64,000 nucleotides of DNA from a virus (IMGVR_UViG_3300042508_000526), one strand, 5' to 3'; shown: positions 6,575-62,276, numbered from the stretch's first letter. Translations and numbers: made by a program. Notes: generated by a model from the letters alone, not told the origin.

Positions 6575-8473
6575 TTAAGTTGTGCTGTAAACAATTCCAG
6601 TAATCCTCAGTACGCCGACCTCTCCGTATACGTCCGCAGGATTTTCATCGCGGCCTATTGTAAACAGCACCGTATCGCCTTGGCTGACTCCAAACGGCGC
6701 GCTTTCTCGCTGGATGACTTTGTCCATCAGCAGCGAGATTGCCGGCAGCGGCGCGATTGGTGTATCAGCTGAAATTAAACCAATACCCGTGTTATTAGTC
6801 AGCGCTGGCGCGGGCAGTACGCGGTAAGACATGTACAGCGACGGCAATAACGCCGCCTGCTGCGCCGAGCCGCCGCGCCCGAAATACTGAACGCGAACTT
6901 TCATGTTCAAATTGTCGCCGATGTTTTGCCCCGGCACATTGAAACGCACGCGCAACAGAGACGCCTGCCCGTACGGAAAACCGATGTACGGAATATCCAT
7001 GTATAAGCGCTCTACGGTGTCGCTAAGCCTGATAATCTGCGGCGACAACTCGCGCTCGACTAATTGATCTGTATAGTCGATCTGCAACACGCCTTGCTGC
7101 AGCATGATCGTATTAGTCGTGCTCAGCTCTAACGCTTCTTTTTCAGCTGTAGTCAGCGCGCGTTCTTGTACGCCCTTGATGCTGATCTGATTCGATACCG
7201 TGAACGCGCCTTCGGCAACCCAGCCGCGTTTTAATTTCTTACCGGCTACAATTTGTTTGACTGCCTGACCGCCCAGCGCCTCGCCGGCGGCGTATTGCAT
7301 ATTGAGGTCAAGCCGAAGATCGCCTGTTGTGGCCGGCGCGCCTGCGCAGTTTGTGACCACAATCGGGCTTTCGTCGATATCCGGCTCGATGCTGGTTACG
7401 ACATTTCTGTCGTTGCCCAGTAACATCCGTAAAAACACGACAGACAGCCGCATTGTTTCTTCACGCGGGCACTCTTCAACACCCGGCGTAACTGGCGTCT
7501 CTGCGACAGTTGTATCTAACGTCGCCGGCCACGGAACATCGCCGTAGCAGTTGCTCATCCACCAGATGCCATTTGTGTCGCATACGACGAGACCTTGCGC
7601 GCCTAGCGGAACTTCCGTGGCGCCTACATGGTTTTCGCCTTTGTCCCAGAGAACCGCCACCGACTGAATGGGTAGCGGCGGCCATACGTTAGATAGCGCC
7701 GGATGCGCGTTTAAGTTGTAACCGAACAACGCGCCAGCCGGCGCCTTGTTATTAAAAACGCTGTGCGACACCGGCAACCAACCGGGCGTAGTAGCGCTTG
7801 TATCGCTTTCACTTTCTTCGTTGACTGTTATTACGTGCTCATCGCCGGTGTTTGGCGGCTCGTGCGGGCCGGCGGGGCGACAAACCAAATCGAACCGGTA
7901 GTGCGTGTGTTCGTCGATAAAGTCGCGCACGTGCGGCATGACAACAACGCGCGGCACAGTAGAGCACGCATCTTTTGGGCCGAGTACTTGGCAAACAAAT
8001 ACCGACACCGCGGGGCGCTGCTTCACCAGTTTGCCGCATGTTGTGCCGGACAAGTAATAGCGCCCGGGAGCGATCGGGCCTGTGATCGCGTTTTGTAGCT
8101 CCGGCATGTCCACGACGCCGTGCAGCACAACGTCAGCCAGCGTTTCGCCTTTTTTGCGCAAACACATACCGACGCAATCAGACGACGGAAGCACGACGAG
8201 TGTTTGCGACGTCGCGTCTGTTTCTACAGCTGCTTGCGCGCGCTCATAGCGTTTCTCTGTCGAGTTCCAGTAAACCGGATGCCCCGCAAGCACGTCAGGC
8301 GCTACGGTGGCGTCAGTGTCGAAAATAGCTTGTCCGAGCGCAGCGGCGTCAAGCCGGTCGCGAAGGTAGTCGGTACGGTTTTCAAGCGTGCGGTCGGGGC
8401 GCGATACAACGCCAGCCTGCACCGGCTCGCCCGGCGTTACGTGTTTAATATTATGTAGCCAGTTACCGGACAT
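6575..8473 (-). CDS. Baseplate/tail-fibre attachment protein (632 aa)
   Basis: N-terminal GEPVQAGVVSRPDRTLENRTDYL resembles myophage fibre/baseplate N-termini; position after the wedge genes. Confidence 0.5.
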   Translation of the reverse strand: MSGNWLHNIKHVTPGEPVQAGVVSRPDRTLENRTDYLRDRLDAAALGQAIFDTDATVAPDVLAGHPVYWNSTEKRYERAQAAVETDATSQTLVVLPSSDCVGMCLRKKGETLADVVLHGVVDMPELQNAITGPIAPGRYYLSGTTCGKLVKQRPAVSVFVCQVLGPKDACSTVPRVVVMPHVRDFIDEHTHYRFDLVCRPAGPHEPPNTGDEHVITVNEESESDTSATTPGWLPVSHSVFNNKAPAGALFGYNLNAHPALSNVWPPLPIQSVAVLWDKGENHVGATEVPLGAQGLVVCDTNGIWWMSNCYGDVPWPATLDTTVAETPVTPGVEECPREETMRLSVVFLRMLLGNDRNVVTSIEPDIDESPIVVTNCAGAPATTGDLRLDLNMQYAAGEALGGQAVKQIVAGKKLKRGWVAEGAFTVSNQISIKGVQERALTTAEKEALELSTTNTIMLQQGVLQIDYTDQLVERELSPQIIRLSDTVERLYMDIPYIGFPYGQASLLRVRFNVPGQNIGDNLNMKVRVQYFGRGGSAQQAALLPSLYMSYRVLPAPALTNNTGIGLISADTPIAPLPAISLLMDKVIQRESAPFGVSQGDTVLFTIGRDENPADVYGEVGVLRITGIVYSTT

Positions 8474-8500
8474 CCTGTCCTCCGGCGGTTAAATGCGTGT

Positions 8501-9130
8501 TTACAGAAACGCGATATCCCAAGTGATACCGATTTGCGACGACGGTTCTTTTGTGACCTGATTCGCGCCGCTGAATTGTGTGCGGGCAAAAATAACGTCC
8601 TTTGTGCGGTCACTAAAGTCCGGCGTTGCGACAAGGCACGCGGCGTAAACCTTGCTACTTGTGCCGAACGCCCGAGACGATTCCGGATACACGGCGTTCG
8701 CGCCCGCCGTCTGCGCAAAGAATGTCAACTGGTTACCGGACTGATTGACCGGTAAGTTGCCGTCATACCCGCTCGATACGCTCAACGCCGGCTCAAGGCT
8801 CAGCGGCACGCGCAGATAGTTTTTCGTCGTCGACGACGACAAGCCGTTGTAATAATCGATTCCGATATCGCGATTAAACGCTGGCGTAGAAATAACGCTA
8901 GCAGTATTTGCTAGATTTTCGTACTCGATGTACATCGCTGAGATATGGTAATCGGCACGGTCGGCTTGCCGCCTGTAGCCGATTTGTTTTGCCGCAATGT
9001 AACCCCACGTGTACTGGATCTGATTTGGCTGCGAAAAAACCGGGAGTTTAAGTCCGGTCCGGTCGTCGACGCGCCACACCGCGACATGACCTTTGACGCC
9101 AAATACTGAATTGATAGTGTCTGCAGCCAT
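8501..9130 (-). CDS. Baseplate-associated structural protein (209 aa)
   Basis: Beta-rich; synteny between wedge and fibre genes; C-terminal IFARTQF...ITWDIAF resembles tail-collar-type proteins. Confidence 0.45.
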   Translation of the reverse strand: MAADTINSVFGVKGHVAVWRVDDRTGLKLPVFSQPNQIQYTWGYIAAKQIGYRRQADRADYHISAMYIEYENLANTASVISTPAFNRDIGIDYYNGLSSSTTKNYLRVPLSLEPALSVSSGYDGNLPVNQSGNQLTFFAQTAGANAVYPESSRAFGTSSKVYAACLVATPDFSDRTKDVIFARTQFSGANQVTKEPSSQIGITWDIAFL

Positions 9131-9139
9131 AGTAAATCC

Positions 9140-15991: not shown

Positions 15992-16853
15992 TTAAGTTCT
16001 TCCTGACTTCTTCGGCGCGGTAGATATAGGCCATTACAAGCCCGGCTATACGATACGCCGGTAGCGGGTGGTCAAACCATACGTTTTTAAACGTAGCATA
16101 AGGCTCGACGCTGTCTACACCGAACAGCTCTAGAAACACTGGTTCGCCAAGTAACTCTAACGTCGGTAATAGCGTCGTGATCGCGGCCGGCGGATTGGCC
16201 GCAAGCTTTACGTGCCACTTGGCTAGTTTTTCATCGTCGGTAAGTATTGCCGGCGCTTGTCCGTTATTTACGCGTAGCCGTATTTGTGTTTCCGGCAATT
16301 CGATCACCGGAAGATCTTTGAAATAGACCGTGGCGGTAGGCGGATCTCCTGTAAAGTCGTATACAAAGCCGTCTGCGCGAAACACGGGTACGCTGTCTTT
16401 TGTGTCTGTTACTGTCAGCACTAAACTATTTACCGTACTAAGCGATAATATTACGTCATATTCACGTAGTGCTTTTCCACCAGAGTTGCTAACTACAAAC
16501 TCGCCGCTAAAAGATAGGGTGCACGGCGTACCGTAGACTTGCTGAACCGTAACGCTAGGCTGATATTTGAACTCAGTCGATGTTTCTTCTGGCCAGTACG
16601 TCACGCGCGGATCTAATGCGTGCACATAACTAACTAGCTCTGTTTGATGCACATAGCTCAGCAGTTCTCGCACACGCAGATTTAAAAACCGCTGATCGGG
16701 ACGAGAGCCGAACAACACGCCACGAATAACGCGCAGAGTATTCGGCAGCGTTAGCGGTCGAAACGAGTCTGGTATGTACTCGTAGCCAGCGTCCTGTTTG
16801 TTGGCGCTCTGGGCAAAGATATTCAGTAGTAGTGTGCGCGCGTGATTAATCAT
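15984..16853 (-). CDS. Hypothetical baseplate-region protein (289 aa)
   Basis: Overlaps the hub start by 8 nt; synteny. Confidence 0.6.
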   Translation of the reverse strand: MINHARTLLLNIFAQSANKQDAGYEYIPDSFRPLTLPNTLRVIRGVLFGSRPDQRFLNLRVRELLSYVHQTELVSYVHALDPRVTYWPEETSTEFKYQPSVTVQQVYGTPCTLSFSGEFVVSNSGGKALREYDVILSLSTVNSLVLTVTDTKDSVPVFRADGFVYDFTGDPPTATVYFKDLPVIELPETQIRLRVNNGQAPAILTDDEKLAKWHVKLAANPPAAITTLLPTLELLGEPVFLELFGVDSVEPYATFKNVWFDHPLPAYRIAGLVMAYIYRAEEVRKNLNA

Positions 16854-26644: not shown

Positions 26645-29600
26645 TTAGACCACTAAGTGCAGCTCAATGTTATTGAGCGGCGCCGGGACAACGAGATCGA
26701 GAACAATTTCGATTCGGTCCTTTAACAGCGGGTGGATTTGCAGTCTGCGAATCGTGCCGTCAACCAGCTGCGAACCCAGCTCTTCGGTGAAGCCGTTGGC
26801 CTTGAGGAAGTCGATGATCGCCGTGACTTCGAACCGCAGACGTCGCACCATACCTTCTTGCGCGTTGGTGCGGCCGATGAACGGACGCAGGCGGCGCAGG
26901 AACAGGTAGGACATCGAGTCCACGTTGCGGCGGATCATCTCTTCCCGACGATTCAGGTCGAGGTTGTCCGTCGTCAGCGCGTGCCGCGTGTGCGGCGTGC
27001 CGTCCTTGTCTTCTGTCACGATCCACACTCCGGCCTCAGCCATACGGTTGAGCTGAGTTTCGTTGAAGTACTTATACGACCGCGTGTAATCATCAAAACC
27101 GGCAACCTCGACGTTGGTCAGCGGCTGGTGGGGGACAACGCCGCTCACCAGACCAGCCAGCGCTGAAGCCAGATAGAAACCGGGCTGCAGTGTGCCAGCT
27201 TCGCCAACCTGATCCGGCCACACGGCGCAAACCCGGCGATTCGACAGCGAGCCACCCTGCTGCGCAATGTCTTCCGCGACCTCGTTGCGGTTACGGTTGT
27301 GATAGATCTCTACGCGTTGCGGCTGCGTTACCGCGGCATCAGCGCCGGAGTACAGCAGCAGCGTCGACTCAGACAGTACCTGATCGACAACGTACTCTTC
27401 ATACTGCTCGTCGCCGAAACCGTCGACCGAGAAGTTGTAACGGACGATGTCGCCGGGGCGAACGTCGTTCGTGATGAAGTAACCGTTGCCCGATGTGACC
27501 GTCAGCTTTGTGTACTGCGTGTTGGTCGCATTCGGATCGTCGGCCAGTGTCGCGAGAACGGGCGAGTCGATTTCTGTACCGAGCACGCCGTTAACCGGCA
27601 CGCCTTCGCCAGCCACCTTGACGACCGGGTGCGCCTTGAGGCTGAAGAAACCGGCCTTCCAGTTATTGGCGTACTCATTCGATTCGGCGCCGATGTGCGC
27701 AGCCCACAGATTTTGAATCTGCCGCTCGAACGTCAGCGGAACGAGGTTGTACATGTCGTCACGACCCTTGATGCGCTCAAGCACCTGCACCCAGCTGTCG
27801 AGGTTCGGGCCGATGTAGCGATTTTCCGAATCAAAACGATCCGGCTCGCCGACGGCCGTGTACTTCACAACTGTACCGTTGCTGTTAGAGAGCGCCTTAT
27901 AGACGCCCCACTTCAGCGGGTTATCCGGGTGCAGCTGGCCCTTGATCACGTCGAGATCAGCAACGTCGCTGATCGAGTTGACCTGATCGGCCAGCTCGCT
28001 GAGCCACTCGCGGTACTCGACGTAAACCTTGCCGCCCATGACGGGCAGCGGCTGTTCAGCACCAGCGCTTGTCCACTCAGGGTGGTAAGCGATGATGCCT
28101 TCCTGCACGCAGACTTGCGTATCTTCAAGCCAGTAGTTGGTCTCCGGCGCGTAACCGATACGATTACGCGAGACCTGAATGTCGTCCTTGATGTACAGCA
28201 TGAGGTCCATGTCCTCGCCGCTGATCAGGCTGACAGTCGCGCCGGTGGCTGTTGTACCGCCCACAGGTGCGGCAGCAAACGTTACCGTCGGCGCTGTGAC
28301 GTAACCCGAGCCGCGGTTCGTCACCGTTACGGCTACAACCTTGCCGGCTGTCGAACCCGTGCCGAGCACCGCGGTACCGGTCGCCGTTGTGGCGCCAATA
28401 TTACCGCTTGTCGGGGCCGAGAACGTGACGGTCGGGGCTGTGACGTAACCGGAGCCGATACCGCCGGCCGGAATGTTCACGAAGCCAACCTTATCAACGG
28501 GCAGGCCGTCTTCAGACAGCAGGCTGGTCGGCAGGTCATCGCGAAGGATGAGCTTGCGCACCGGGCCAGCTTGGCTGGAGTTAACCGTGATGTACCACTT
28601 GTCGCCCTTGCGGAGGCCAGCAACAGCGTCCGAGCTGCCGCCAGTCGCGCCGAGAAACTTAACCTTTACGCCGTTCGTGCCAATCGCCACCGAGATGGCG
28701 TTGGAACCTTCACCGTCGCCGACAACCTCGGTCGGACCAGAGAAGTCGAGGCCCTTGGCCGTCTTCACGGTGATTTCCGGAAGCTGCGCGAAGGTGCCGC
28801 CCTTTGTGCACTCGATGATGTAAACGTCGTTCTTAGCGCCGGCATACTTGCCGAGAATGTCAAGCTGACCAGCGACGCCGTTGACAGAGTCTTCAGTCGC
28901 GTAAACGCCGTCGGCATCCGAAACGGCGATCGCCGGCTCGAACGTCTGCTTTACAATGAACTGCCATTTCTGACCAACAACAAAGTTGTCGCTCGTCGAG
29001 CCGTTCGAGAAGCGGACCGACAGGCCGCGGGTGCCGATGAACGTAACGCCCGAAGCGGCATCAATTTCATTCGGCGTGATTTCCGCTTGATCGTCCGTTC
29101 CGCTGGCCGACGTTACGCGCAGCCGCGCAGCGTTGCAGCCAGAGATTGTGCTTTTGATAACTTCAACGGTATAGGTTTCGTTGACGTAGCCGTCAACAAG
29201 ACCGCTGTAGGTGTTGGCGCCGGCGTCTCCGCCGTCCAGAACAGTAACGGCAACAGCGTTGTCCGTACCGGCAATCTGAAAATTCGACGCGCCTGCCGCT
29301 GCAGTGACGTCTACGCCGCTAAGATCTGTTGCGGTGTAAGCGTCTTCATTATTAACGTCGGCTACGGCCGGAAGAATGCGCGACGGGACGAGGTCGCTGG
29401 CAAAGCCAGTAACGTATGTCTCAAGCACAGTCTCTTCGCAGTCGTTGTCGGCGCTCACAACGCGCAGCTTGACAACGTCACCGAGCTGAACGTCGCGGTC
29501 ATAAAACACGCCGCTACGCGGGTACGAACCGCCGTTCGCTTTGAACGACAGGTTCGACGATTGAATCCAATTCGATTTGCCGGGCACAGCCGTAACAGTT

Positions 29601-29896
29601 GTCGCGTTGTCGCCGACCGTGTGCGAGTAGTACTGCAGCATGGCGTCGTCGATGTAGACCTTTACATACGACGGATCGACGCGCGAGCCAGCAAGACGCT
29701 GCGGCCACGGATAGCATGTGTCGTTTAAACGATCGTAGACGCCGAGTAAGCAATCGGGCTTCTCATTCGCGTCGCCATAACGATGAAGAACAGCGTGCGG
29801 GCCAGCAATGTGGGCGCGCAGCGGTTCCGTGATCTCCGTCGGGACGATCCGGAACTCTTGAAAAACAAGAACTTGGGGTTTTACGTAGCTCGACAT
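26645..29896 (-). CDS. Tail sheath protein (1083 aa)
   Basis: N-terminal YVKPQVLVFQEF; C-terminal HALTTD...EEMIRRNVD...DRIEIVLDLVVPAPLNNIELHLVV sheath C-domain. Confidence 0.9.
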   Translation of the reverse strand: MSSYVKPQVLVFQEFRIVPTEITEPLRAHIAGPHAVLHRYGDANEKPDCLLGVYDRLNDTCYPWPQRLAGSRVDPSYVKVYIDDAMLQYYSHTVGDNATTVTAVPGKSNWIQSSNLSFKANGGSYPRSGVFYDRDVQLGDVVKLRVVSADNDCEETVLETYVTGFASDLVPSRILPAVADVNNEDAYTATDLSGVDVTAAAGASNFQIAGTDNAVAVTVLDGGDAGANTYSGLVDGYVNETYTVEVIKSTISGCNAARLRVTSASGTDDQAEITPNEIDAASGVTFIGTRGLSVRFSNGSTSDNFVVGQKWQFIVKQTFEPAIAVSDADGVYATEDSVNGVAGQLDILGKYAGAKNDVYIIECTKGGTFAQLPEITVKTAKGLDFSGPTEVVGDGEGSNAISVAIGTNGVKVKFLGATGGSSDAVAGLRKGDKWYITVNSSQAGPVRKLILRDDLPTSLLSEDGLPVDKVGFVNIPAGGIGSGYVTAPTVTFSAPTSGNIGATTATGTAVLGTGSTAGKVVAVTVTNRGSGYVTAPTVTFAAAPVGGTTATGATVSLISGEDMDLMLYIKDDIQVSRNRIGYAPETNYWLEDTQVCVQEGIIAYHPEWTSAGAEQPLPVMGGKVYVEYREWLSELADQVNSISDVADLDVIKGQLHPDNPLKWGVYKALSNSNGTVVKYTAVGEPDRFDSENRYIGPNLDSWVQVLERIKGRDDMYNLVPLTFERQIQNLWAAHIGAESNEYANNWKAGFFSLKAHPVVKVAGEGVPVNGVLGTEIDSPVLATLADDPNATNTQYTKLTVTSGNGYFITNDVRPGDIVRYNFSVDGFGDEQYEEYVVDQVLSESTLLLYSGADAAVTQPQRVEIYHNRNRNEVAEDIAQQGGSLSNRRVCAVWPDQVGEAGTLQPGFYLASALAGLVSGVVPHQPLTNVEVAGFDDYTRSYKYFNETQLNRMAEAGVWIVTEDKDGTPHTRHALTTDNLDLNRREEMIRRNVDSMSYLFLRRLRPFIGRTNAQEGMVRRLRFEVTAIIDFLKANGFTEELGSQLVDGTIRRLQIHPLLKDRIEIVLDLVVPAPLNNIELHLVV

Positions 29897-29947
29897 GCGT
29901 CAGGCCTCCGTGCCTAAAATTTGTGTGCGGTATGGCGTTCAGAGCGT

Positions 29948-32188: not shown

Positions 32189-33181
32189 TCAATAACGAAT
32201 TCTGAGCGCGTCTGTATACGCCGAGTACTTGTAGGTCGAAGAAACCTCGCCGTAGCAGTTTTCAAGGTTGATGCTGGCTTTTGTCGCGCGCACCCATTCT
32301 CGATACGCTTGCCAGCGAGCCTGTCCGGCGCGCTCGTAGCTGGACTCTTTGTTTTGATCGTTAATCGCTATTCCGGCCGCGTTGTAGTCGAGCTGATTGC
32401 GGCGGAACTGTTCCGCAACCATTAAAAACAGGTTGGCGCAAATGCCCTCTAACCAGTGATAGCGGAATGGGAACGTCTGCGTGTTGTACATCGCGTCTAG
32501 CGGCGGCGGGATCTCATTCCAGTACATAACCGGCCGAGAAATAGCCAACGCGATCTCGGCGTCATCAAACATTAAGTTATCAAGCAAAAAGCTTTCGTTC
32601 GGCGCTGAGTCGCGCAGGTGTAGCCGAATCTCGGCGATGCTGGGCGGACCACCGTATTGGTTTACGTCGCCAAATGTGCTGCGCGCAATAACGAGCGAAA
32701 ACGTATTAGAAAAGATGACGCACGGCTGCTGGCTCGTTAGCGCCGGCACACTAACCATGGCCATCTCAGCGTAGTAAACGCCCGGAACGCCCGTCATCGC
32801 AGGCGTAAGCGCCGCAGACACCTGCCCGGTTTCCGCGTTTACAATTGTCGCATCAACCTGTACCGGCGCGTTTTGATTACCTAGCGATAGCTGCTCTTTT
32901 AGCCGTAAAACGATTTTAAAGTCGTTGTCGTCAACGCAAGGCGCAAGATTTACAGGGCGACCTTCGCGGTCGTGCATTTGCCACGCAATTGTGGCGCACT
33001 GCCCCTGCGTCACCGTGACGGCCCGCATACGTGTAAGAATGGGCTGGCCATTTACTGCCGAAACTGGCGCGCTGATAACGTTTTGCGTTGCGCACGGTAC
33101 GGGCATAACTTGTTGCGCGGTAGTATTACCGTTGCAACACGGGACAATTGGATGCGCGGCAGGTGAAGCGATGACGACCAT
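32189..33181 (-). CDS. Head-tail adaptor with N-terminal BppU-like beta domain (330 aa)
   Basis: EIRLHLRD...LMFDDAEIALAI adaptor-like helices; VTQGQ...GVYYAEM N-domain. Confidence 0.6.
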   Translation of the reverse strand: MVVIASPAAHPIVPCCNGNTTAQQVMPVPCATQNVISAPVSAVNGQPILTRMRAVTVTQGQCATIAWQMHDREGRPVNLAPCVDDNDFKIVLRLKEQLSLGNQNAPVQVDATIVNAETGQVSAALTPAMTGVPGVYYAEMAMVSVPALTSQQPCVIFSNTFSLVIARSTFGDVNQYGGPPSIAEIRLHLRDSAPNESFLLDNLMFDDAEIALAISRPVMYWNEIPPPLDAMYNTQTFPFRYHWLEGICANLFLMVAEQFRRNQLDYNAAGIAINDQNKESSYERAGQARWQAYREWVRATKASINLENCYGEVSSTYKYSAYTDALRIRY

Positions 33182-33212
33182 GTAAACCTCCGTATTACAG
33201 CGTAAGTATACA

Positions 33213-33249
33213 AATAAAAACGGCTGGCCGCTTACGCAGCCAGCCGTTT
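33213..33249 (-). terminator. Rho-independent terminator ending the capsid operon
   Basis: AAACGGCTGGC-loop-GCCAGCCGTTT followed by TTATTT. Confidence 0.8.
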
Positions 33250-33613: not shown

Positions 33614-34000
33614 TCAAGATGCGCTTTGCAGAGCCGCAGCGGCAGCCGCTTGCAGAGTCAGAACAGCCTGCGCGATCGCAGGTTGCTCAGCCGCAATGCC
33701 AGCTACGTCGCTGTAGGCAGCCGCTTTTTCAACTGTGCCGCCAAGGCCCGCGGCCGCAAGCATCGCGTCCAGCTGCTTGTTAGCAGCCGAGAGACCCGAC
33801 ACTTGCGCGGCCGCGGCCTTTTCTTGCTCCGCCGTGTAGAGCACATGAAGCTTGGAAGCAGCAGTCCACATCTCTGTGGCCTCGCTCTCCGAGCGCGGAG
33901 CAATTCCGTGCGCGGCAAGCTTCTCGAAGAAATACGGCGCGGCAAGTTCCGCCACGATGGTGGCATACGCTTGCTCTGCCGCCTCTTTAACGTTGTCCAT
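33614..34000 (-). CDS. Ala-rich head-associated protein (128 aa)
   Basis: AAGGAG RBS; four K-x-A motifs. Confidence 0.65.
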   Translation of the reverse strand: MDNVKEAAEQAYATIVAELAAPYFFEKLAAHGIAPRSESEATEMWTAASKLHVLYTAEQEKAAAAQVSGLSAANKQLDAMLAAAGLGGTVEKAAAYSDVAGIAAEQPAIAQAVLTLQAAAAAALQSAS

Positions 34001-34034
34001 AACGTGCTCCTTTTGGTTTAAACCTTACACGGCA

Positions 34035-34961
34035 TCACTTGAAGTCGACGCGGGCGAGACCGTTCGTATGGCCGAACGAGCCGCCGGACGTCTGATACGC
34101 AAAGTACTCAAGCATGTAAGCCTCACGACGGATGTACATCGTGGTGGGCTCCAGCTCGTAGTTCTTACCGATGAACTTCGGGCTGGCGAACATGAAGAGC
34201 GAATCGTCGGGGATCAGGTTGCGCTTGATCGTGACGATCCAACGGCAGTTGAGGAAGTTAGTTTCCGCCCAGCCGTTCTTGATGATGTCTTGCGAGAAGT
34301 CACCACCCATTTCGTCGCGACCAAACTTGAGGAGTTCCTTGATCGTGATGTTATTCACGAGGCAGGTTTCAACCTCAAAGTGACTCGGTGTCCGCGGCAT
34401 GACCTTCAGCGCGTCGACGAGCGTCTCACGGGTGATGCCACCCGAGATCTCTTCGTACTGCACCGTGTCCGACAGGGTCACTATCTGGCCGGGAGCCGTA
34501 AGAACCGCATTGAACGCCGCGATAAACTTCGAGTCCTCTTCGGCAAGCATGTCCTTGATCATGTTGTCGCTGAGAACCTGACGGATGTCGATCACGTACG
34601 TACGCAGCTCGTCGACGTCCTTCACAGCGCGGGGCGACACGATCCGGTCAAACATGACGCGGTAGCGCGGGCCACGGATGTAGAAGTTAATCGGGAGCGT
34701 CGCGAACGGAAGCGACACAGCCGCCGGGGAATCGGGTTCTTTGTCCACAACCTTAACGGGCTTGTCAGTATCAACCTGACGGTCAAGCTCGTCGTTGGTG
34801 ATGGTCAGCGGCGGCATGATCCGCCGGTAGAACCCGTCTTCACGCATCTTGGTGCGCGTGAAGTCGTTAACCGCATCGATGGCCTGCTTCTGCATGCCGG
34901 GGGTATCAAGCTGCTCAAAAAGCGTCTCGTTAAGCAGCTGGATTTCTTGCTGAGTGGGCAT
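34035..34961 (-). CDS. Major capsid protein, HK97 fold (308 aa; start moved to ATG 34961)
   Basis: REDGFYRRIMPP; IRQVLSDNMIKDMLAEEDSKFI backbone helix; follows protease, scaffold and decoration genes; GGAGG 8 nt upstream of ATG 34961. Confidence 0.85.
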   Translation of the reverse strand: MPTQQEIQLLNETLFEQLDTPGMQKQAIDAVNDFTRTKMREDGFYRRIMPPLTITNDELDRQVDTDKPVKVVDKEPDSPAAVSLPFATLPINFYIRGPRYRVMFDRIVSPRAVKDVDELRTYVIDIRQVLSDNMIKDMLAEEDSKFIAAFNAVLTAPGQIVTLSDTVQYEEISGGITRETLVDALKVMPRTPSHFEVETCLVNNITIKELLKFGRDEMGGDFSQDIIKNGWAETNFLNCRWIVTIKRNLIPDDSLFMFASPKFIGKNYELEPTTMYIRREAYMLEYFAYQTSGGSFGHTNGLARVDFK

Positions 34962-35001
34962 TTTGGGAACCTCCATGTTCCTGAATTAGTTAGGGATTAG
35001 A

Positions 35002-35589: not shown

Positions 35590-35645
35590 TGTTAGACCTC
35601 CGTGTCTTTAATCAATTGGAAACGTGTTCCGTGAAGGGGACGAAA

Positions 35646-36068: not shown

Positions 36069-36088
36069 AGTAAAAAACCTCCGTGTAA

Positions 36089-37438
36089 TCAGCGATTCAC
36101 AAGTTCAAGCACATGCTGCTTCATCATGTCCCGCAGTTCGCGCGAACGCTTTGTGCGGGCCTCTTTAACTTGAAACCGACCAGCGCGCTTGAAGTTGACA
36201 ACAGCACGACCAATCGCGTCTAAGTCTTTAGCAGCGGCAGTCTTCGGGGCTTCGGGCATCGGGGCAGCTTCGGGAGCGGGGCCGGCTTCGCCGCCCATAC
36301 CGCCACCCATGCCGCCTTCTTGCACAGCTTGCAGCAAGGCTTCGGGCGGGATGCCAAGCTCTTCAAGAGCCATCGCTAGCTCTTGCACAGCCTCGTCTTC
36401 CGACGGCTCGCCACCTTCACCAGCAGCTTCGGGCGCCATCTCGCCGCCTTCGCCGCCCATCATGGCTTCAAGACCAGCCGGAGCGCCACCAGCTTCGGCA
36501 GCCGGGGCGTCACTCATACCAGACGCAGCATCGCCCGGGGCAGAATGATCTTCGCCCTCAGCGGCTTCTTCAGTCGGATCAGCACCGGCTGTCTTAGCGT
36601 TTAAAAAACCGATGAACAGGTCAGCCATTTCATCGGCGTCGCGGAGCGTGTTAGCGCACACCTCGCGAACCGAGGCTTCAGCAGCAGCCTTGTCCATGCC
36701 AAGAGCAGCGGCAAGTTCATAGCCGGCTTTGAAAGCAGCTTCTTTGCCCGACCGCAGCGCAGCGAGATCAGAACCCTCGATCTTACCGTCGTTGTCCGTG
36801 TCGAGCTTGTGCTGATCACCCTTTAAACCGCTGCCGGAGTGCTCGGCTTTCTCCTCAGCGGGAGACTCTTTTTTTTCTTCGGCCTTTTCTTTCAGGAAAG
36901 CCGGCATCTCAGCCGCCTTCTCGTTTACAAGCTTGCCGGTACCGAAATTGATCAGGTTGGCAAGAATATCGTTACCAAGCGAAGCAGCGCGGTCACGAGC
37001 TTCCTTGAACGAGACAGACGAGTACTTCTCGCCGTCATCCGCCTTCACCGGCGAAGAAGTGCCGGGATCGTCTTTCGTGCCCTTAAAGTCTTTTTCATTG
37101 GACGGGTCTTCGCCGGTCGCCTTAGCAGTCACGCCGATGTTTGTCTGCACATCGTCTTGACGACCTTCTTGCGACATCTCCGGTGTGTTGTCGACAGAGA
37201 GAGCACCTTGCTGCTTCTTGATGTCGGACTCGTACTCAGAAGCGCGCGCACCGGTGTTAGCGTTTTGAACGCCGTTGTCGGCGCTAGTAGTCGGGTGCGA
37301 GGAGGCGCCTTGATAACCGCCCGGATCGGCAGGCACGGGGCCAGCAGATTTTTCGGCCGCCGTCTTCACGGGGCTCTGCGAGATCTCTTCGGCGAGAGCG
37401 TTAAGTTGAGCGAACAGTGAACGTTGCATCCGTGCCAT
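36089..37438 (-). CDS. Capsid scaffolding-like protein (449 aa)
   Basis: Acidic low-complexity sequence between protease and MCP; many K-x-A motifs; AAGGAG RBS. Confidence 0.65.
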   Translation of the reverse strand: MARMQRSLFAQLNALAEEISQSPVKTAAEKSAGPVPADPGGYQGASSHPTTSADNGVQNANTGARASEYESDIKKQQGALSVDNTPEMSQEGRQDDVQTNIGVTAKATGEDPSNEKDFKGTKDDPGTSSPVKADDGEKYSSVSFKEARDRAASLGNDILANLINFGTGKLVNEKAAEMPAFLKEKAEEKKESPAEEKAEHSGSGLKGDQHKLDTDNDGKIEGSDLAALRSGKEAAFKAGYELAAALGMDKAAAEASVREVCANTLRDADEMADLFIGFLNAKTAGADPTEEAAEGEDHSAPGDAASGMSDAPAAEAGGAPAGLEAMMGGEGGEMAPEAAGEGGEPSEDEAVQELAMALEELGIPPEALLQAVQEGGMGGGMGGEAGPAPEAAPMPEAPKTAAAKDLDAIGRAVVNFKRAGRFQVKEARTKRSRELRDMMKQHVLELVNR

Positions 37439-37481: not shown

Positions 37482-38933
37482 TCATGTGACATAATTTTGC
37501 AATACACAGTGGTTTGCTGTCAACCAATGATTCCCGTGTTTTTCACAAATGGCAGCATAAGCAGCAATCTTATACAGCGCGTAGTGTTGTGCAAGAGCTG
37601 TTTCAGCTGCTCCACTGGCTTGTTTATACGACGGAAACTCATCAGACTGAACACCGCGAAGAACCGCTAAATAAGCACGTTTCTCTACGTTGGTCAGTAA
37701 TACGCTATGGGTGTGTGCTAGTTTTTCTGCCCATACACGTGCACTTGGCGACGCAGCAGGAGCAGGATAGTAGGCGTTGTTTTCTAGTAGCTTAACGACA
37801 TCCGCGTCGTTGGCTAACTTCGAAAATATGTTAGGCAGCGCATTAACCACTGCACTAACAAGTCTCGCATCGGCGGTCTTTACTGTCAACGCTAAAAAGT
37901 CCCGCACAGGCAGAACTACTCCGGCGTCGGCAAGGCCGCGCAACACTTCGGATATTTTAACAGAATAGCAGGCATTTACATCAATAGGTGTTTGCACAGC
38001 CGGCGATGACGCCAGCGCCACCTGCGCCCAGCTATGCCCGGCAGTCGCTGTTTTCTCAGCCGCCGCCAGTTGTGTTAACGCCTCTAACTGCTGCTGTACC
38101 CGCGGTAAAAGCGGCTCGCCGCTGAAGTTAATAGGCGCGGTTACACCCAGCTGCTCGGCGAGTTCGGACCCGGATAGACAACCTGCTGCGGCAGCCTTGA
38201 GCTGCCCAGAGACATAAGCGATCCTGTCAGCCGGCCGGAAAACGTGAGAAATATCAAAAAACGTGGGGTTTGGGTTGTCGGCGTGCAGGACGTGCCCGTC
38301 TTCAAGCACGCGCCCCATGTTGTGCCGCAAGCCGCCGGCTTTACAGTGGCCGCCGCGCTCAACAGAGTCGCAGTACTCTGCGCGCGTCTTGGCTTTGTTT
38401 CCGCACGACGAGCACTTATCGAATGGAATCTTGCAGGCCATGGACACAGCGATGTCGTCGCCCTTAGCCAGCTTTTCTAGTTCCTTGTCGGCAATAAGTC
38501 CGCCGTTTCGATCCGCCGCTTCTTTACTTCCGTTTAGAGCGACGACTAACTCAATTCGCTTCATCGGCTCGTGGTACGCCGACGCTTTTACTAAGCCGAA
38601 AGACTTTGCCGGGTTCTTATTGGCGTGGTCGCGATAGAACCGCGCAAACTTCTCAAACGTTTGGTGGTAGTTACGGCAACAATCGCGCGTAAATCCGTCA
38701 CCGTTTCGGTTCGGTCCGTAGTCCTCAGTAGCGCCGATGGCGATCATATGCACCGGCACTTCGTCTTTGGCAAACTTGATGTTCTCAAGTTTATGCGCAA
38801 ATTCAGCGCCGGCGCGCTTAACAAGCTCTTGGCGATCAGTGCCGATAATGCCGCGGCTTGATACTTTTATCAAAGCGGCTACGGGCTCGCTAAAATCCTG
38901 CGCATGCGGTTGAATGACTTTAATCATGCTCAT
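37482..38933 (-). CDS. Prohead maturation protease (HK97/assemblin-type) with Cys-rich insert (483 aa)
   Basis: GPNRNGDGF; FYRDH (His); VSMAC (Ser); FFDISHVFRPADRIA; CSSC...YC...HC insert. Confidence 0.8.
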   Translation of the reverse strand: MSMIKVIQPHAQDFSEPVAALIKVSSRGIIGTDRQELVKRAGAEFAHKLENIKFAKDEVPVHMIAIGATEDYGPNRNGDGFTRDCCRNYHQTFEKFARFYRDHANKNPAKSFGLVKASAYHEPMKRIELVVALNGSKEAADRNGGLIADKELEKLAKGDDIAVSMACKIPFDKCSSCGNKAKTRAEYCDSVERGGHCKAGGLRHNMGRVLEDGHVLHADNPNPTFFDISHVFRPADRIAYVSGQLKAAAAGCLSGSELAEQLGVTAPINFSGEPLLPRVQQQLEALTQLAAAEKTATAGHSWAQVALASSPAVQTPIDVNACYSVKISEVLRGLADAGVVLPVRDFLALTVKTADARLVSAVVNALPNIFSKLANDADVVKLLENNAYYPAPAASPSARVWAEKLAHTHSVLLTNVEKRAYLAVLRGVQSDEFPSYKQASGAAETALAQHYALYKIAAYAAICEKHGNHWLTANHCVLQNYVT

Positions 38934-45008: not shown

Positions 45009-45088
45009 GGCCAGCCTCCATGCGGCACACAATTAACAAACCGCTGTAATTTACCGACTTGCGGTCCCTATATCGTACAAAAACTAGC

Positions 45089-47928: not shown

Positions 47929-47950
47929 GTGACCTCCGTGTGCGCCAAAG

Positions 47951-53618: not shown

Positions 53619-53975
53619 TTACCTTTCTGGTCGATACAGCCGTAACTTCCGATTTGTCTTGGCCCGGGCGGCGTAGGCTTTGTACGCCGCGGCTAGTTCT
53701 CGCGCCTTAAGGTCATCTTCATCGACATCGGGCTCGGTTAATTTCCCGGCCAGATGCCCCGCCAACCCGCCACCAGCCGTCGCTAAAAGCAGCGGGGCGT
53801 AGGCAATATTGCCCGCCCAGCTGCCCACATTGGACAGCGAATTCATGTCAAAGCCGCTTTTTGCGAAATCTTCTGCGGCCTTAATGCGCCCGTTTAACGC
53901 GTCGCCCGTCAGGGCTTCTTCGGCGCACCTGTGTAAAAAGCCCAGCCTAAAGGCTTCCTTTTCCGTGACATCCAT
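53619..53975 (-). CDS. Small glycine-zipper protein (118 aa)
   Basis: LLLATAGGGLAGHLAG after a KSG motif. Confidence 0.6.
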   Translation of the reverse strand: MDVTEKEAFRLGFLHRCAEEALTGDALNGRIKAAEDFAKSGFDMNSLSNVGSWAGNIAYAPLLLATAGGGLAGHLAGKLTEPDVDEDDLKARELAAAYKAYAARAKTNRKLRLYRPER

Positions 53976-53976
53976 G

Positions 53977-54468
53977 TCAAAAGTCTCCGGGCAGAATAAG
54001 TTTCTTTGGCTGCGACCCGACGCTAAAGTCGGGCGTTACGTGCTTACCGGTATCCTTTCCGATAGGCAGCGCACCGGGCAGCGAAGTTGCAAAATTCGCG
54101 CCGCTCGCCATGGATATCTTACTCTTTCGACCCGGCCTGTGTCGCCTAAACCACGCGTCAACAGCCGGATCGTCCCGGTCGCCCTGCTCTTGGGCTTCTT
54201 TTGTTACCTCGATCATATTCTCGATCGCCCGCTGTAAGTCCATGCGGTCCGCGGCCATCCACGGCGCCTGCATCGGATTTTCAGCCGCCATGGTCCGTAA
54301 ACGCCGCGCTTCTTCGCTGATAGCCTGCGCGCGCTGCAAAAATTCTTTACGCGTTAAAACAAAAAACTCGCCGGTCTGTTCGTCGTGCAGACAGACGAAT
54401 CCATTTTTGGCGTAAAATTTGAGACCGCGATAGCTGTAACATTTACCGGTTTTTTGGTAAGCCGACAT
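53977..54468 (-). CDS. Hypothetical protein (163 aa)
   Basis: AAGGTG RBS; tight packing. Confidence 0.6.
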   Translation of the reverse strand: MSAYQKTGKCYSYRGLKFYAKNGFVCLHDEQTGEFFVLTRKEFLQRAQAISEEARRLRTMAAENPMQAPWMAADRMDLQRAIENMIEVTKEAQEQGDRDDPAVDAWFRRHRPGRKSKISMASGANFATSLPGALPIGKDTGKHVTPDFSVGSQPKKLILPGDF

Positions 54469-57097: not shown

Positions 57098-57130
57098 AGA
57101 ACCTCCAATTGAAAGTAACACCCTAGTTTA

Positions 57131-57952
57131 TCAAGTTTGCGGCACCAGTACATACGGCCGACCGTTAATCACAATAGTGCCGTTAATTTGCAGTCCAGCA
57201 TCTTTTGTAATCGGATAAACCGCGGTGCGCTTTCCGTAAAGTTTTATGATTTCGGCGATATCGCCTTCTTGCGGTTTTGTTACGTTCGGATCGTAGTAGG
57301 GCGCCATCAGGTTACCCGCGTTTAAATGCGGTAGCCCCAACGCGTGCCCCAGCTCGTGACAAATAACAGCAACAGCCATGTTGAACGACCAGTCTTCCGC
57401 TTCGTCGAACATCTGATCAAGCTGGACGTTTTCGGCTACACCGCACGGCAACTCGCTCCACGCCAGTGTGCCGCCCTTGTTATCTAAACCGTTTTTCTTT
57501 CCGACACCGGAGCGCGCATAAATGTTCGCCTTGGTGTGCGTATCGACGCGCTGCGGCTCCAGCGCACACACCTCTGCCCACTGCGAAAACGCAATGTCGT
57601 AGGCTTCGGCCACCTGCTGTTCTGTCAGCCCCGGCAAATGGATTTTGTGATAGTACGTCACATTCGGCATCGGCCACTTGCACGGATCGCCGCCCGGAGC
57701 GGTGATATTGAAGTCCGGCAGACCGCAGCGCCGCTTGTTGATGCGATGCGCTGTCTTGGGGCCCACAGTACCTGTGGGGTTTAAGCCGTTAAACGACTGG
57801 AAGGCGCGGATCGCTTTTTGCAACTCCGCGCCTTTAATCTTCTTGACCTGCGCCAGCGTTTTATCGCCGAAATACCCCAGCGCATGCAGCCGCGTGAGAA
57901 TCTCGCTGATCGGTAAAACGTGGGTTTCGTGAGCGGTTGGCTTCCGTGCCAT
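57131..57952 (-). CDS. Pro-matrixin (M10 metallopeptidase) with PGBD-like prodomain (273 aa)
   Basis: AIRAFQSFNGLNPTGTVG (PG-binding-like); cysteine switch RRCGLPD; HELGHALGLPH zinc motif; Met-turn LMAP. Confidence 0.9.
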   Translation of the reverse strand: MARKPTAHETHVLPISEILTRLHALGYFGDKTLAQVKKIKGAELQKAIRAFQSFNGLNPTGTVGPKTAHRINKRRCGLPDFNITAPGGDPCKWPMPNVTYYHKIHLPGLTEQQVAEAYDIAFSQWAEVCALEPQRVDTHTKANIYARSGVGKKNGLDNKGGTLAWSELPCGVAENVQLDQMFDEAEDWSFNMAVAVICHELGHALGLPHLNAGNLMAPYYDPNVTKPQEGDIAEIIKLYGKRTAVYPITKDAGLQINGTIVINGRPYVLVPQT

Positions 57953-57973
57953 CGTGCGCCTCCGTGCTTGATG

Positions 57974-58381
57974 TTAGCGCGCGGGAGCCAGTTCCATTAG
58001 CCCAGCAGCCGCGGCATCATCAATTGTATCACTTAGGCTGTACACAGCACCCACAACTGGATTATCACGCGTATAGGTCGTGCCAGTCTTTGCGCAATGT
58101 TCTCGCCATAAATTATTTAACCGACGGCGCAAGCGCATTAACTTCCGCGGCGGCAACGTGCGAAGCTCACGCATGTTTTGCGCAATAGATTCGTCCGAGT
58201 TTTGCTCGCGGCAGTGAATGATTACCTGCACCAACACCGAGATAATCATGATTACGAGAATCGGATCAAACTGGCAGTTCTCGTTATCTGCCTGCAGCAC
58301 AAGCTCATCCGTGAGCTTGCGTTGCAGGTCTTGCAAAGCCGGAGACGCAGCGATCCGCTGCTGCAGTTCTTCGGTGGTCAT
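57974..58381 (-). CDS. Hypothetical protein with central hydrophobic helix (135 aa)
   Basis: PILVIMIISVLVQVIIHC; TGATG coupling. Confidence 0.6.
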   Translation of the reverse strand: MTTEELQQRIAASPALQDLQRKLTDELVLQADNENCQFDPILVIMIISVLVQVIIHCREQNSDESIAQNMRELRTLPPRKLMRLRRRLNNLWREHCAKTGTTYTRDNPVVGAVYSLSDTIDDAAAAGLMELAPAR

Positions 58382-59853: not shown

Positions 59854-59854
59854 A

Positions 59855-60118: not shown

Positions 60119-61425
60119 TATTTCTTCCCCCAACGAGAGATAGTGTCAAAAATATCATTGCCGTAAAGCTGCACAATCTTGTCCGTGGGGTTCATTTGCG
60201 GCAGCGTGCCGTTAATCGCCATCTGCGCCACTTGATAACGATAGTTTGGGTCAAGCTGCGACCGGTACAAGTGTGATTTATGCCGCGCCGCCATAATAAA
60301 GTCGCCGCGCTGTTTGGCCTTGAGCAAATGATCGGTCACGTTTTGAAAAACGGGCTTACTGTGGTCGTAGATAAGCGGCTCGCGGAAGTTCAATAGGTTG
60401 CGAAACTGTTGCCCGTACACGCTAGCGCCAGCTTTCTCTATTTTTTGGACTTTTTTGTAGTAGTCGGGGTCTTCGGACAAGTGATCCTTGGCAATTTCTT
60501 TGGCAACTTGACCATTGTCTGTGTGTTCGCGCTCATGTTTAGCTCCTTCAGCTAAAGCAGGTTCAGAAAAATCCCGATCGGGTAAATTATCGGCTTCACC
60601 GCCCGGTAACAGGTCTTTTTGTCCCGAACGGGAAAGTGCGTTTGGCTGCTGTTTTTCTGCGGCAGATACCTTCTCGGCGGCGCAGCGGCCGGATTTTTTA
60701 CACACGCACGTTTCAGGGCACATGCACGGACCGGAGCAGCCACAGTCGTACGTGGTCTTATCATCCGCGGCGGCTTTGAGTTCTCCCCTGCTGATGGGGT
60801 TACTAAACCTATGCTCGTCGGCGCTTTCGGCCGAGGTTTCGGAACCCTTGGCCGTGCCGTTGTCGCGTAAAACGCCTTTGCGCCGGACAGCGAATGTGAT
60901 GTGAAACGGTTGATCGTCCTTGGGCAGCGCCGAAAGGCCGTAACTCTTGCGCAAGGCAGACAGCGCCGGACTGAGCACATGTAGCGCCCATACTTTGCTG
61001 ACGCCGCGCACGTTTTTGACGTCAATTTCTTTTAGGCCGCCCAGCGTATAGCCGAACATGTGACCGCGTTCGTTAATCTTGTCGCCGCCGATTGCTTCTA
61101 CTTCAGCCGCCGTCATCACCGAGATGTGCGCATTGACCAACTCGCCATCGACGTTTGGTACATTCATCACGCCGGCAGTCGGCAGCTCAGTGCCGGGCTC
61201 GGTAAGGGCGTCAAATACACCGCGGACGAGCGCGTTGGGCACCGCCAGCAGCAACCAGCCGCTTTTTGCGAGATATAGCCGACCCGAAAGCGGGTAGCTC
61301 GTGGCGGCGTTCTTGTCGCCGCTCATATACAGCCAGCCTAGCGCGTTGCCAGCAGCGTAGGCGGGGTGCTCGCGGAAGTATTCCGAGTCCCACGCGAGCG
61401 GATCTAAAGCGGATAGCGTATCCAT
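60118..61425 (-). CDS. Multidomain protein: 2H phosphoesterase + Cys cluster + DUF5661-like domain (435 aa)
   Basis: Two HxS/T motifs (HISV 61117-61128, HITF 60892-60903); CGCSGPCMCPETCVCKKSGRC; GAKHEREHT...AKEIAKDHLSEDPDYYKK. Confidence 0.75.
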   Translation of the reverse strand: MDTLSALDPLAWDSEYFREHPAYAAGNALGWLYMSGDKNAATSYPLSGRLYLAKSGWLLLAVPNALVRGVFDALTEPGTELPTAGVMNVPNVDGELVNAHISVMTAAEVEAIGGDKINERGHMFGYTLGGLKEIDVKNVRGVSKVWALHVLSPALSALRKSYGLSALPKDDQPFHITFAVRRKGVLRDNGTAKGSETSAESADEHRFSNPISRGELKAAADDKTTYDCGCSGPCMCPETCVCKKSGRCAAEKVSAAEKQQPNALSRSGQKDLLPGGEADNLPDRDFSEPALAEGAKHEREHTDNGQVAKEIAKDHLSEDPDYYKKVQKIEKAGASVYGQQFRNLLNFREPLIYDHSKPVFQNVTDHLLKAKQRGDFIMAARHKSHLYRSQLDPNYRYQVAQMAINGTLPQMNPTDKIVQLYGNDIFDTISRWGKK

Positions 61426-61441
61426 GCGGGACTCGTCCTTA

Positions 61442-61517
61442 TGGCTGCCTGAGTAGGACTCGAACCTACGACCCGGCGGTTAACAGCCGCCTGCTCTACC
61501 AACTGAGCTATCAGGCA
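61442..61517 (-). tRNA. trnN: tRNA-Asn (GTT)
   Basis: 76 nt; acceptor stem TGCCTGA/TCAGGCA; D-arm TAGCTCAGTTGGTAGAGC; anticodon arm GGCGG-CTGTTAA-CCGCC; GGTTCGAGTCC T-loop; encoded GCCA end. Confidence 0.97.
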
Positions 61518-61523
61518 ATTTTG

Positions 61524-61670
61524 TCACGGGTGCGTAGTCATCGTTGGCATGTCAGTATGCCCGTGACTGTGCGCTACTGCGGCTAGCGCAGACACGAACA
61601 GAAGCAGACAAAACATAGCGGACGCGCCCCACGCCGCTACGCTCAATTGTTTACGAATTGTCATTGTCAT
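61524..61670 (-). CDS. Small hydrophobic peptide (48 aa)
   Basis: AAGGAG RBS; one TM or signal-like helix; overlaps the holin-like gene end. Confidence 0.45.
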   Translation of the reverse strand: MTMTIRKQLSVAAWGASAMFCLLLFVSALAAVAHSHGHTDMPTMTTHP

Positions 61671-62007
61671 GCTCGTGATCTCCTTGACGATCGCGCTCGT
61701 GCACAATAGTGACTTTGATACCAGCTCCGGCTAGCAAAGATATCACAAGATCGGTCATTGTGGAGCCGCCCATACCGGCGAGCACACAGATTCCGATCAA
61801 ACCGTAAACGTTCTCTGCTTTTCGGTAGTTTTGGTACCAAATCAGCGCAATGGCCAAACCCAGAAAACCGGCGTTGAGCATGGCGCTGACAACAGCTAGT
61901 TTAGATAACTTCTTGGCAAACCGCAAAAAGGTCGCCAAGCCTGCAAAAGCAGCAGCGCCAAATGCGCTAAAAAGCACCGACAACGAATGTAGTGTTTCGT
62001 CGCCCAT
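61651..62007 (-). CDS. Three-TM holin-like protein (118 aa; start moved to ATG 62007)
   Basis: Three hydrophobic helices and a charged C-terminal tail (HERDRQGDHEHDNDNS). Confidence 0.5.
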   Translation of the reverse strand: MGDETLHSLSVLFSAFGAAAFAGLATFLRFAKKLSKLAVVSAMLNAGFLGLAIALIWYQNYRKAENVYGLIGICVLAGMGGSTMTDLVISLLAGAGIKVTIVHERDRQGDHEHDNDNS

Positions 62008-62049
62008 GTTTAATAACTGCCGACTGTGTAACGATTTGTGAAATGTGAA

Positions 62050-62276
62050 TGTACGCCAAAAGCCCCTGCGATCCCCTGTCCGCAGGTCCGTGTCCCGACC
62101 GAAGTCAGGACTCCGCAGCAACTTTCAAGGACAAAATTTATCCTGTGTGGCATTTGCTGCTCCTCCGCCCGCGTGCCCGACAGAATCTGACCGCGGAACC
62201 TGTAACCCCGTTGGCATCCATGCCGCCGAAGAAACGCCTAACCAGCCGGCCACCACGACTAACTTTTGACGCACAT
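62050..62276 (-). ncRNA. Candidate structured RNA (GGA-rich sRNA or long 5' leader)
   Basis: 349-bp gap with no credible ORF. Helices GGC-ATGGAT-GCC, GCAGCAA/TTGCTGC enclosing AGGATAA/TTGTCCT, GTCCTGAC-TTCG-GTCGGGAC and CCTGCG/CGCAGG followed by GGCTTTT. The UUCG loop and G-U pair favour the minus strand. Confidence 0.55.

Follow-up and report, generated by a model that had tools for sequence, protein, structure and literature searches.

CsrA is among the best-studied post-transcriptional regulators of bacteria. In the RsmE-hcnA and CsrA-glgC systems of Pseudomonas and E. coli (PDB 2JPP) its site is an A-N-GGA-N hexaloop that is closed by a C-G and then an A-U pair and that overlaps the Shine-Dalgarno (SD) sequence. 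The optimum site of RsmE is (A/U)CANGGANG(U/A) (PMC5864733), and the consensus obtained for CsrA by SELEX is RUACARGGAUGU, in which ACA and GGA are invariant and the loops are mostly six bases long; in the SELEX sites AC pairs with GU, the stems are mostly no longer than 4 bp, and two sites 10-63 nt apart, as found in some natural targets, are bridged (PMC7652899). Here we analyse a 64,000-nt stretch of viral DNA (IMGVR_UViG_3300042508_000526; "the window" below), for which an original prediction made from its sequence had proposed CsrA-type stem-loops on the translation starts of virion and lysis genes as a late-gene switch. We conclude that this phage probably controls translation of its own genes through CsrA-type hairpins on about twenty ribosome sites.

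Phage T4 RegA is a virus-encoded RNA-binding protein that blocks the ribosome sites of several of the phage's own mRNAs, acting on early mRNAs, and the coat-protein operator of MS2 and Q-beta (a single operator in MS2) is a hairpin that contains the ribosome site. Both resemble the system proposed below in acting at ribosome sites, but the proteins and the RNA motifs are unrelated. A closer parallel in target type is the CsrA-hag-FliW system of Bacillus subtilis, where CsrA sites lie on the SD of a very high-copy structural subunit and could couple its synthesis to assembly; in the present phage there is no FliW homologue, and any coupling to assembly is pure speculation. Phage csrA genes have been found in 30 of 2517 phage genomes (PMC7366521) and surveyed in GenBank and IMG/VR (PMC8450108), and plasmid pQBR103 encodes RsmQ, a CsrA homologue that acts on host mRNAs (PMC9928087). 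The phage copies have been catalogued without a demonstrated role, the published ideas being host manipulation. These are, as here, CsrA-family genes on mobile elements, but their action has been proposed or shown on host mRNAs, with no cognate sites reported on the element's own genes. A search of the full-text literature found no report of cognate CsrA sites on a phage's own genes, which agrees with the earlier remark that no such phage-wide regulon was known.

The window corresponds to bases 48270-112269 in a virus record of 203,206 bp (G000 below) that has terminal repeats and is rated complete, and nearly all of its genes are on the minus strand. Genes were called with our own codon-usage model, the start being chosen by SD and start codon, and some small genes were missed; PHROGs and Pfam name hardly any of the target genes.

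Hairpins on ribosome binding sites

All 14 hairpin sequences of the original prediction were found as written on the minus (coding) strand. The sites on which the argument turns are listed here in window coordinates, with one from elsewhere in the genome.

34966..34981, minus strand: hairpin GGAAC-ATGGAG-GTTCC on the SD of the putative major capsid gene (34035-34961); it is the predicted minimum-energy fold
35594..35607, minus strand: AGAC-ACGGAG-GTCT, a hairpin on the SD of a 195-aa gene that lies upstream of the capsid gene ("decoration" is a candidate label from the original prediction)
29900..29917, minus strand: hairpin TTAGGC-ACGGAG-GCCTGA (core 29902-29915) on the SD of the 1083-aa sheath-like gene (26645-29896), which has a weak PHROG tail-sheath match
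45010..45026, minus strand: GCCGC-ATGGAG-GC(T)GGC, a hairpin at the SD of the 792-aa gene (start codon GTG)
8468..8480, minus strand: GGAC-AGGAT-GTCC spanning the start codon of the 632-aa gene
57958..57967, minus strand: matrixin site 1, GC-ACGGAG-GC, on the SD of the peptidoglycan (PG)-binding/matrixin gene (57131-57952; Pfam Peptidase_M10 and PG_binding_1)
57938..57951, minus strand: matrixin site 2, TGGC-ACGGAA-GCCA, 18 nt away from site 1 and inside the coding region at +7
37426..37435, minus strand: GC-ACGGAT-GC, a second site at +7 in the 449-aa gene, 17 nt past the GGA of its SD
G000:C1:33355-33405 (L138:13355-13405), minus strand, outside the window: hairpin of a GNAT acetyltransferase gene with a perfect 10-bp stem, by far the longest, and an ACGGAG loop; the predicted fold has 13 pairs and buries the start codon (z -5.9)

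The capsid gene is so named from the match of its 308-aa product to the major capsid protein of Salmonella phage Arash (28% identity, tblastn). The phage sites, for example G-ACA-C-GGA-G-GU-C, agree with the CsrA consensus at every specified position, and their stems are short. Clear double sites 17-18 nt apart are present in three genes (the matrixin, 449-aa and 241-aa genes, the last at G184204-184929), and most targets have one recognisable site. Relative to the RsmE-hcnA and CsrA-glgC sites, the phage loops differ in that the last base is mostly G, which makes a full GGAGG SD, and in having C or U before GGA.

The original prediction had counted seven of 11 GGAGG SDs with CAN in front; our recount of the window gave seven of 12. 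The coding strand of the genome as a whole has 89 copies of GGAGG, of which 27 stand 4-20 nt ahead of a called start; another six lie before small-gene starts that the caller missed. CA[CT] stands before 12 of the 27 SD-positioned copies and before 3 of the 62 others (Fisher p 1.8e-5; binomial p 5e-12 for the 12 of 27 if CA[CT] is expected at its upstream-region frequency of 3%), and two of those three actually precede uncalled small-gene starts. The strands are unequal, with 16 copies of CA.GGAGG on the coding strand against two on the opposite one. Fifteen of the 16 are CA[CT]GGAGG, 14 of these lie 9-15 nt before a start, and the sixteenth copy, CAAGGAGG, is also an SD. CA[CT]GGAGG thus marks a ribosome site almost exclusively. 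SDs in which GGAG is followed by a base other than G have CA[CT] in front in only 1 of 53 cases, so the C at -3 goes with the G at +4, the two being the closing pair of an A-Y-G-G-A-G hexaloop.

Stems were analysed at the 179 GGA sites that lie at -22..+12 of starts, with a loop register of two bases before GGA and one after; in the null the SD and downstream sequence were kept and the 5' flanks were swapped between genes (5000 permutations). An NN-GGA-N hexaloop with at least 3 contiguous bp is formed at 24 of the 179 sites, against 9.5 +/- 2.9 in these SD-preserving shuffles, none of which reached 24 (0/5000), and when 25 loop registers were scanned on the same sites NN-GGA-N alone was clearly enriched. 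The frequency of A-N-GGA-N loops with a stem of at least 3 bp is 16/55 (29%) at SDs, 3/18 (17%) across the ATG, 3/20 (15%) at +4..+30 and 17/329 (5%) far from starts, so that the excess is limited to the start zone. Start-zone sites with such stems number 21 (4-5 expected), or 32 if stems of at least 2 bp are taken. In the SD-type sites GGA precedes the start by 7-15 nt, and in the others it is found at +2 to +9.

Conservation and covariation in relatives

Megablast found no cultured close relative. At least 19 lake-water metagenome runs, from many studies, contain most of a 5-kb stretch of the genome, which makes this a freshwater phage. With the capsid protein as query we collected 65 related loci (55-96% identity), and three additional scans gave loci around the matrixin, 626-aa and 632-aa genes.

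In 38 sequences of the capsid hairpin the A-Y-GGA-G loop and its closing pair are invariant (loop A and GGA throughout, C-G in 38/38 rows), the next pair is A-U in 33/38, and the stem varies: GGAAC/GTTCC, AGAC/GTCT, GCAC/GTGC, GATC/GATC, TAAC/GTTA and TTC/GAA all occur. Stem cells in these 38 relatives are paired in 88.9% of cases against 71.0 +/- 1.8 in shuffles, with changes on both sides in 30 cells against 7.8, and controls slid along the alignment all gave 64% or less. The hairpin of the 195-aa gene behaves in the same way: over 37 distinct relatives, pairing is seen in 85.4% of cells (67.4% in shuffles) and both-side changes in 29 cells (against 9.9), so that stem covariation was found at both of these genes.

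Other hairpins are kept with changed stems. That of the sheath-like gene has a TCAGC/GCTGA variant in L043 and is lost in one subclade, where the SD is GGAGAG. In the 792-aa gene relatives have GCCGC-A[TCG]GGAG-GTGGC or CAGC/GCTG stems. At the 632-aa gene the relatives have a canonical hexaloop, GGAC-A[AC]GGAT-GTCC (stem GGC/GCC in L196), of which the window's copy has a loop one base shorter. The most telling conservation case is the matrixin gene. At its site 1 relatives have TGC-AAGGA[T/A/C]-GCG: the final position of the loop is unconstrained and the SD a weak one, yet the six-base loop and its closing C-G pair persist, so it is not SD strength that is conserved. Its site 2, which at +7 inside the coding region cannot be an SD, persists in the majority of relatives down to an identity of about 55% in the N-terminal 120 aa and is missing from several at 54-59%, and in L158 a GAC/GTC stem replaces GGC/GCC. 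At the second site of the 449-aa gene (ATG GCA CGG ATG) the synonymous positions are invariant in the majority of some 27 relatives that have 74-94% identity in the N-terminal 120 aa. The plain SDs of neighbouring genes (341-aa, 91-aa and 626-aa) have a context that varies freely.

The original prediction had pointed out that several loops are not SD-like, and these proved to be conserved as well (AAGGAT, AAGGAA and AAGGAC at matrixin site 1, ACGGAA and ACGGAT in coding sequence); SD strength therefore cannot account for these loops. Two of the earlier sites fell away. The hub site AAGTC-AGGAA-G(A)ACTT (15994-16009) is not conserved in relatives, and the 7-bp hairpin in the 135-aa gene (58300-58319) is a coding palindrome, K-L-T-D-E-L, that decays once the protein changes. 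These two, and the few listed sites with stems of just 2 bp, are what would be expected if the hairpins arose by chance or as a by-product of SD composition, but for the set that explanation is contradicted by the excess over the flank-exchange null, by the single register that stands out, by the unequal strands and by the covariation, and we regard it as scarcely credible; chance for the whole set is rejected by the register and flank null together with the covariation at the capsid and 195-aa genes. The claim that CsrA/RsmE-type sites lie on translation starts was accordingly upheld by the consensus match, the SELEX features, the enrichment over the SD null and the covarying stems.

A phage-encoded CsrA and the distribution of the hairpins

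The search for a CsrA gene in the phage, which the original prediction had suggested, found an intact one outside the window.

G000:C1:38420-38614, minus strand: csrA of the phage, 64 aa, about 10 kb before the window

The protein matches PF02599 with 62.8 bits (cut-off 27) through residues 1-48 of the 53-position profile, and its residues 1-49 align with the CsrA/RsmE chains 1Y00, 2JPP and 1VPZ, end to end with 2JPP and 1Y00. The RNA-binding regions of CsrA are residues 2-7 and 40-47, including R44 (PMC5864733); the phage protein has MLVISRK at its N-terminus and V-T-V-I-R-G-E-L at 40-47, and L2, V3, R6, R44 and E46 are invariant across nine family members. By its sequence it is a member of the CsrA/RsmA family (PF02599) with the RNA-binding regions kept.

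The gene takes other forms in some relatives. At L068 (G004:C1:11292-11729) a 184-aa frame has two CsrA domains in tandem, possibly a single-chain dimer; G007 (L073, L076) has two separate csrA genes; and in the CsrA of G010 (L075) the first strand is followed by an insertion of about 16 residues.

Our preferred reading, to which we give a probability of about 60%, is that a dimer of a CsrA-family protein, of which the phage's own is the likeliest, occupies the loops and so restricts the loading of ribosomes on some 20-30 phage mRNAs. Each mRNA site has a six-base A-(C/U)-G-G-A-N loop with C-G closure, usually an A-U pair next and one to four more pairs; the GGA of the loop is normally that of the SD, and a few genes have a second loop 17-18 nt downstream in the first codons. 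Bound dimer would limit loading of the 30S subunit. The binder would most likely be the 64-aa phage protein, possibly together with a host CsrA, and the outcome would be a phage-encoded post-transcriptional regulon of about 20-30 genes that includes those of the highest-copy virion proteins (the capsid gene, the gene upstream of it and the sheath gene). Such a regulon may serve the timing or the dosage of abundant proteins. We infer CsrA binding, and the phage protein rather than the host's as the ligand, from the features described above, and repression from the position of the sites. The system would share with RsmE-hcnA and CsrA-glgC the protein family, its RNA-binding residues, the form and placement of the loop and, in three genes, a double site, and would differ from them in that the virus encodes both regulator and targets and in that no sponge RNA was found (below).

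Some other phage RNA-binding protein or nuclease might instead read the GGAG loops, for example a RegB-like endonuclease that cuts GGAG, or a repressor. Most of the phage genes have no recognisable family and so could hide one, but there is no candidate factor, the sites fit the CsrA consensus throughout, and a conserved CsrA is present; we consider such a factor very unlikely.

A switch confined to virion and lysis genes, as first proposed, was not borne out. Seven of the 21 best sites are in the window, which is about its share of the genome, and outside it there are sites on the GNAT acetyltransferase gene, on a gene for a SEC-C-motif protein and on many unannotated genes. Within the virion module the high-copy components carry sites and the low-copy tail-fibre and baseplate genes are without them. 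Since the sites are genome-wide, "late-gene switch" is too narrow a description.

Among the 18 relatives that are at least 90% complete, 15 have csrA; the three without it are the most distant, and these also lack the hairpins and have plain SDs on the same genes. The frequencies of A-N-GGA-N loops with a stem of at least 3 bp at SD-positioned and other GGA sites, obtained with a proxy that is free of gene calls (one-sided Fisher tests), are as follows.

G000 (studied genome), csrA present: SD 23%, elsewhere 6%, p 6e-6
G003, csrA present: SD 10%, elsewhere 6%, p 0.11
G004, csrA present (tandem fusion): SD 29%, elsewhere 11%, p 1.5e-8
G005, csrA present: SD 18%, elsewhere 9%, p 3e-4
G007, csrA present (two copies): SD 15%, elsewhere 7%, p 2e-3
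G010, csrA present (weak match): SD 12%, elsewhere 6%, p 0.015
G008, csrA absent: SD 4%, elsewhere 5%, not significant
G009, csrA absent: SD 6%, elsewhere 6%, not significant
G053 (complete), csrA absent: SD 7%, elsewhere 4%, p 0.11

The odds ratios are 1.6-4.6 in the six genomes with csrA (five significant) and 0.9, 0.9 and 1.7 in the three without (none significant).

Two further explanations were weighed. In the first, the host's CsrA is the ligand, and either gates phage translation or is drawn off by late mRNAs that serve as a sponge and reprogram host metabolism, while the phage CsrA has some other role. The general CsrA/RsmE consensus that the sites fit is recognised by host proteins too (PMC5864733, PMC7652899), the presence of CsrA in phage and host has been reported to be correlated (PMC8450108), so that the host probably has one, and high-copy late mRNAs would make effective sponges. 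The hairpins are, however, confined to the clade with csrA, though this is a single contrast, and a sponge would not need precise placement on the SDs and start codons of about 20 genes; we think a host ligand improbable. In the second, the hairpins are structured ribosome sites that work without CsrA, the loop presenting GGAG and setting efficiency or protecting the 5' end of the mRNA, and csrA targets host mRNAs only. Roles of phage CsrA in host manipulation or as an anti-CRISPR have been proposed (PMC8450108, PMC7366521), the strongest sites are on genes expected to be highly expressed, and contigs of relatives from freshwater RNA libraries cover the capsid gene (90-99% identity), although these are uninformative on 5' ends or regulation. 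The AC...GU closing pairs, moreover, follow from pairing with GGAGGU, and in other phages the presence of csrA is no predictor of such hairpins (below). Unexplained by SD function or by structure of this kind are the invariant A of the loop, the non-complementary C or U before GGA (complementarity to the anti-SD of 16S rRNA would favour A there), the fixed six-base loop, the pairing of the last G of the SD, which partly hides it, the conserved non-SD loops (AAGGAT, ACGGAA), the second sites in coding sequence and the plain SDs on the same genes of the relatives without csrA. We therefore judge structured sites of this kind unlikely, if worth keeping in mind.

Several points weigh against regulation by a phage CsrA. 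Why a phage should repress the late proteins that it needs most is not obvious. The AC/GU part of the consensus is forced, once a hairpin forms, by the GU of the GGAGGU SD. Folding of the leaders is unremarkable, with z-scores close to zero (capsid +0.5, sheath -0.4) except for the GNAT leader; stability being uninformative, it is the covariation that carries the argument. On the capsid tree the genomes with and without csrA are parted by one branch, so that their co-occurrence with hairpins counts as one evolutionary contrast and is confounded with host. No hairpin enrichment is seen in phi297, a temperate Pseudomonas phage with csrA, and 62 other viral loci with csrA, found by a degenerate DNA pattern and covering a few kb around the gene so that regulons may lie elsewhere, gave when pooled 7.7% against 6.0% (p 0.10), no significant enrichment. 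Carriage of csrA is thus not sufficient for the hairpins in other phages, and the pattern is lineage-specific. Nor was a partner for CsrA seen: no CsrB/CsrC or RsmX/Y/Z-type small RNA was matched by Rfam in the whole phage genome, a scan of GGA density reached at most 10 GGA per 300 nt on the coding strand and 11 on the other with no array of hexaloops, and FliW (PF02623) had no match at E <= 1 in the phage genome. A small RNA of the host, or one of an undescribed kind, may still act as the sponge.

In a more elaborate form of the idea the phage would run a translational programme of its own with a global regulator captured from bacteria: the phage CsrA would hold the mRNAs of high-copy virion proteins (capsid, sheath and others) repressed and a phage antagonist would time their release, or assembly would feed back. 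The neighbourhood of csrA yields no candidate for the antagonist, because it is conserved among close relatives only. We regard this form as doubtful; were it true, viruses would have their own equivalent of the flagellin-FliW-CsrA homeostat, and late-gene control in viruses a class not described before.

If regulation by a phage CsrA is true in its general form, a phage family with csrA and about 20-30 cognate operators would have made a virus-encoded translational regulon out of a host regulator. Phage CsrA would acquire a concrete, testable function and a defined set of RNA targets, the natural covarying operator variants could inform CsrA specificity, and strong GGAGG ribosome sites in phage genomes might have to be regarded with caution as regulated, not merely efficient.

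Weaker sites and other features of the genome

The remaining sites of the window are less regular or less widely kept.

33181..33199, minus strand: TGTAAT-ACGGAG-GTTTACA, an imperfect hairpin on the SD of the 330-aa gene; its 3' arm contains the ATG
36077..36086, minus strand: AC-ACGGAG-GT on the SD of the 140-aa gene; the stem is 2 bp
47932..47941, minus strand: AC-ACGGAG-GT on the SD of the 242-aa gene
53966..53979, minus strand: TGAC-ATGGAT-GTCA with the start codon of the 118-aa gene within the loop; a weaker candidate
33990..34005, minus strand: ACGTT-ATGGAC-AACGT across the start of the 128-aa gene; a weak candidate, absent from the earlier list

The 330-aa site is kept as CACGGAGG with a bulged stem in close relatives, and more distant ones have plain SDs. 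At the 140-aa gene the motif CACGGAGGTTT is widely kept and distant relatives have a GATC/GATC stem, and the closer relatives retain CA[CT]GGAGG at the 242-aa gene, where their stems have 1 to 5 bp. The 118-aa site is kept in about 10 close relatives and missing in distant ones, with no covariation, and the 128-aa site is kept in some close relatives only. At the predicted site GGC-ATGGAT-GCC (62213-62224) there is no recognisable start.

Conserved extended -10-like elements are found 10-25 nt upstream of some of the hairpins or SDs in the window and in related loci (minus strand). TTTGTATACT precedes the 330-aa gene (window ~33205-33225), and TGATAAAAT/TGATAAACT precede the 91-aa gene (window ~57110-57135). 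Their form suggests sigma-70-type promoters that start transcripts just ahead of the operator.

Elsewhere in the genome there is a full-length tmRNA (Rfam RF00023, 130 bits) at L141:9144-9494 (G000:C1:141413-141763, minus strand). The 1.4 kb beside it (G000:C1:139978-141412) has twice the expected GGA density, no accepted gene and several short open frames; as a sponge RNA it was rejected, since CsrA-type hexaloops do not form an array there. The DUF3800-VIII small RNA motif of Rfam is matched just above its gathering score (43.1 bits, gathering score 40.2) at L139:1513-1588 (G000:C1:41513-41588, minus strand), where the gene caller placed no gene. The window differs from the genome record by single bases at window positions 38607 and 38637. 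Several tRNA genes lie near the tmRNA (G000 ~142.0-145.0 kb) and others at 3.7, 33.4 and 38.1 kb, and the window itself has a tRNA-Asn gene at 61442-61517.

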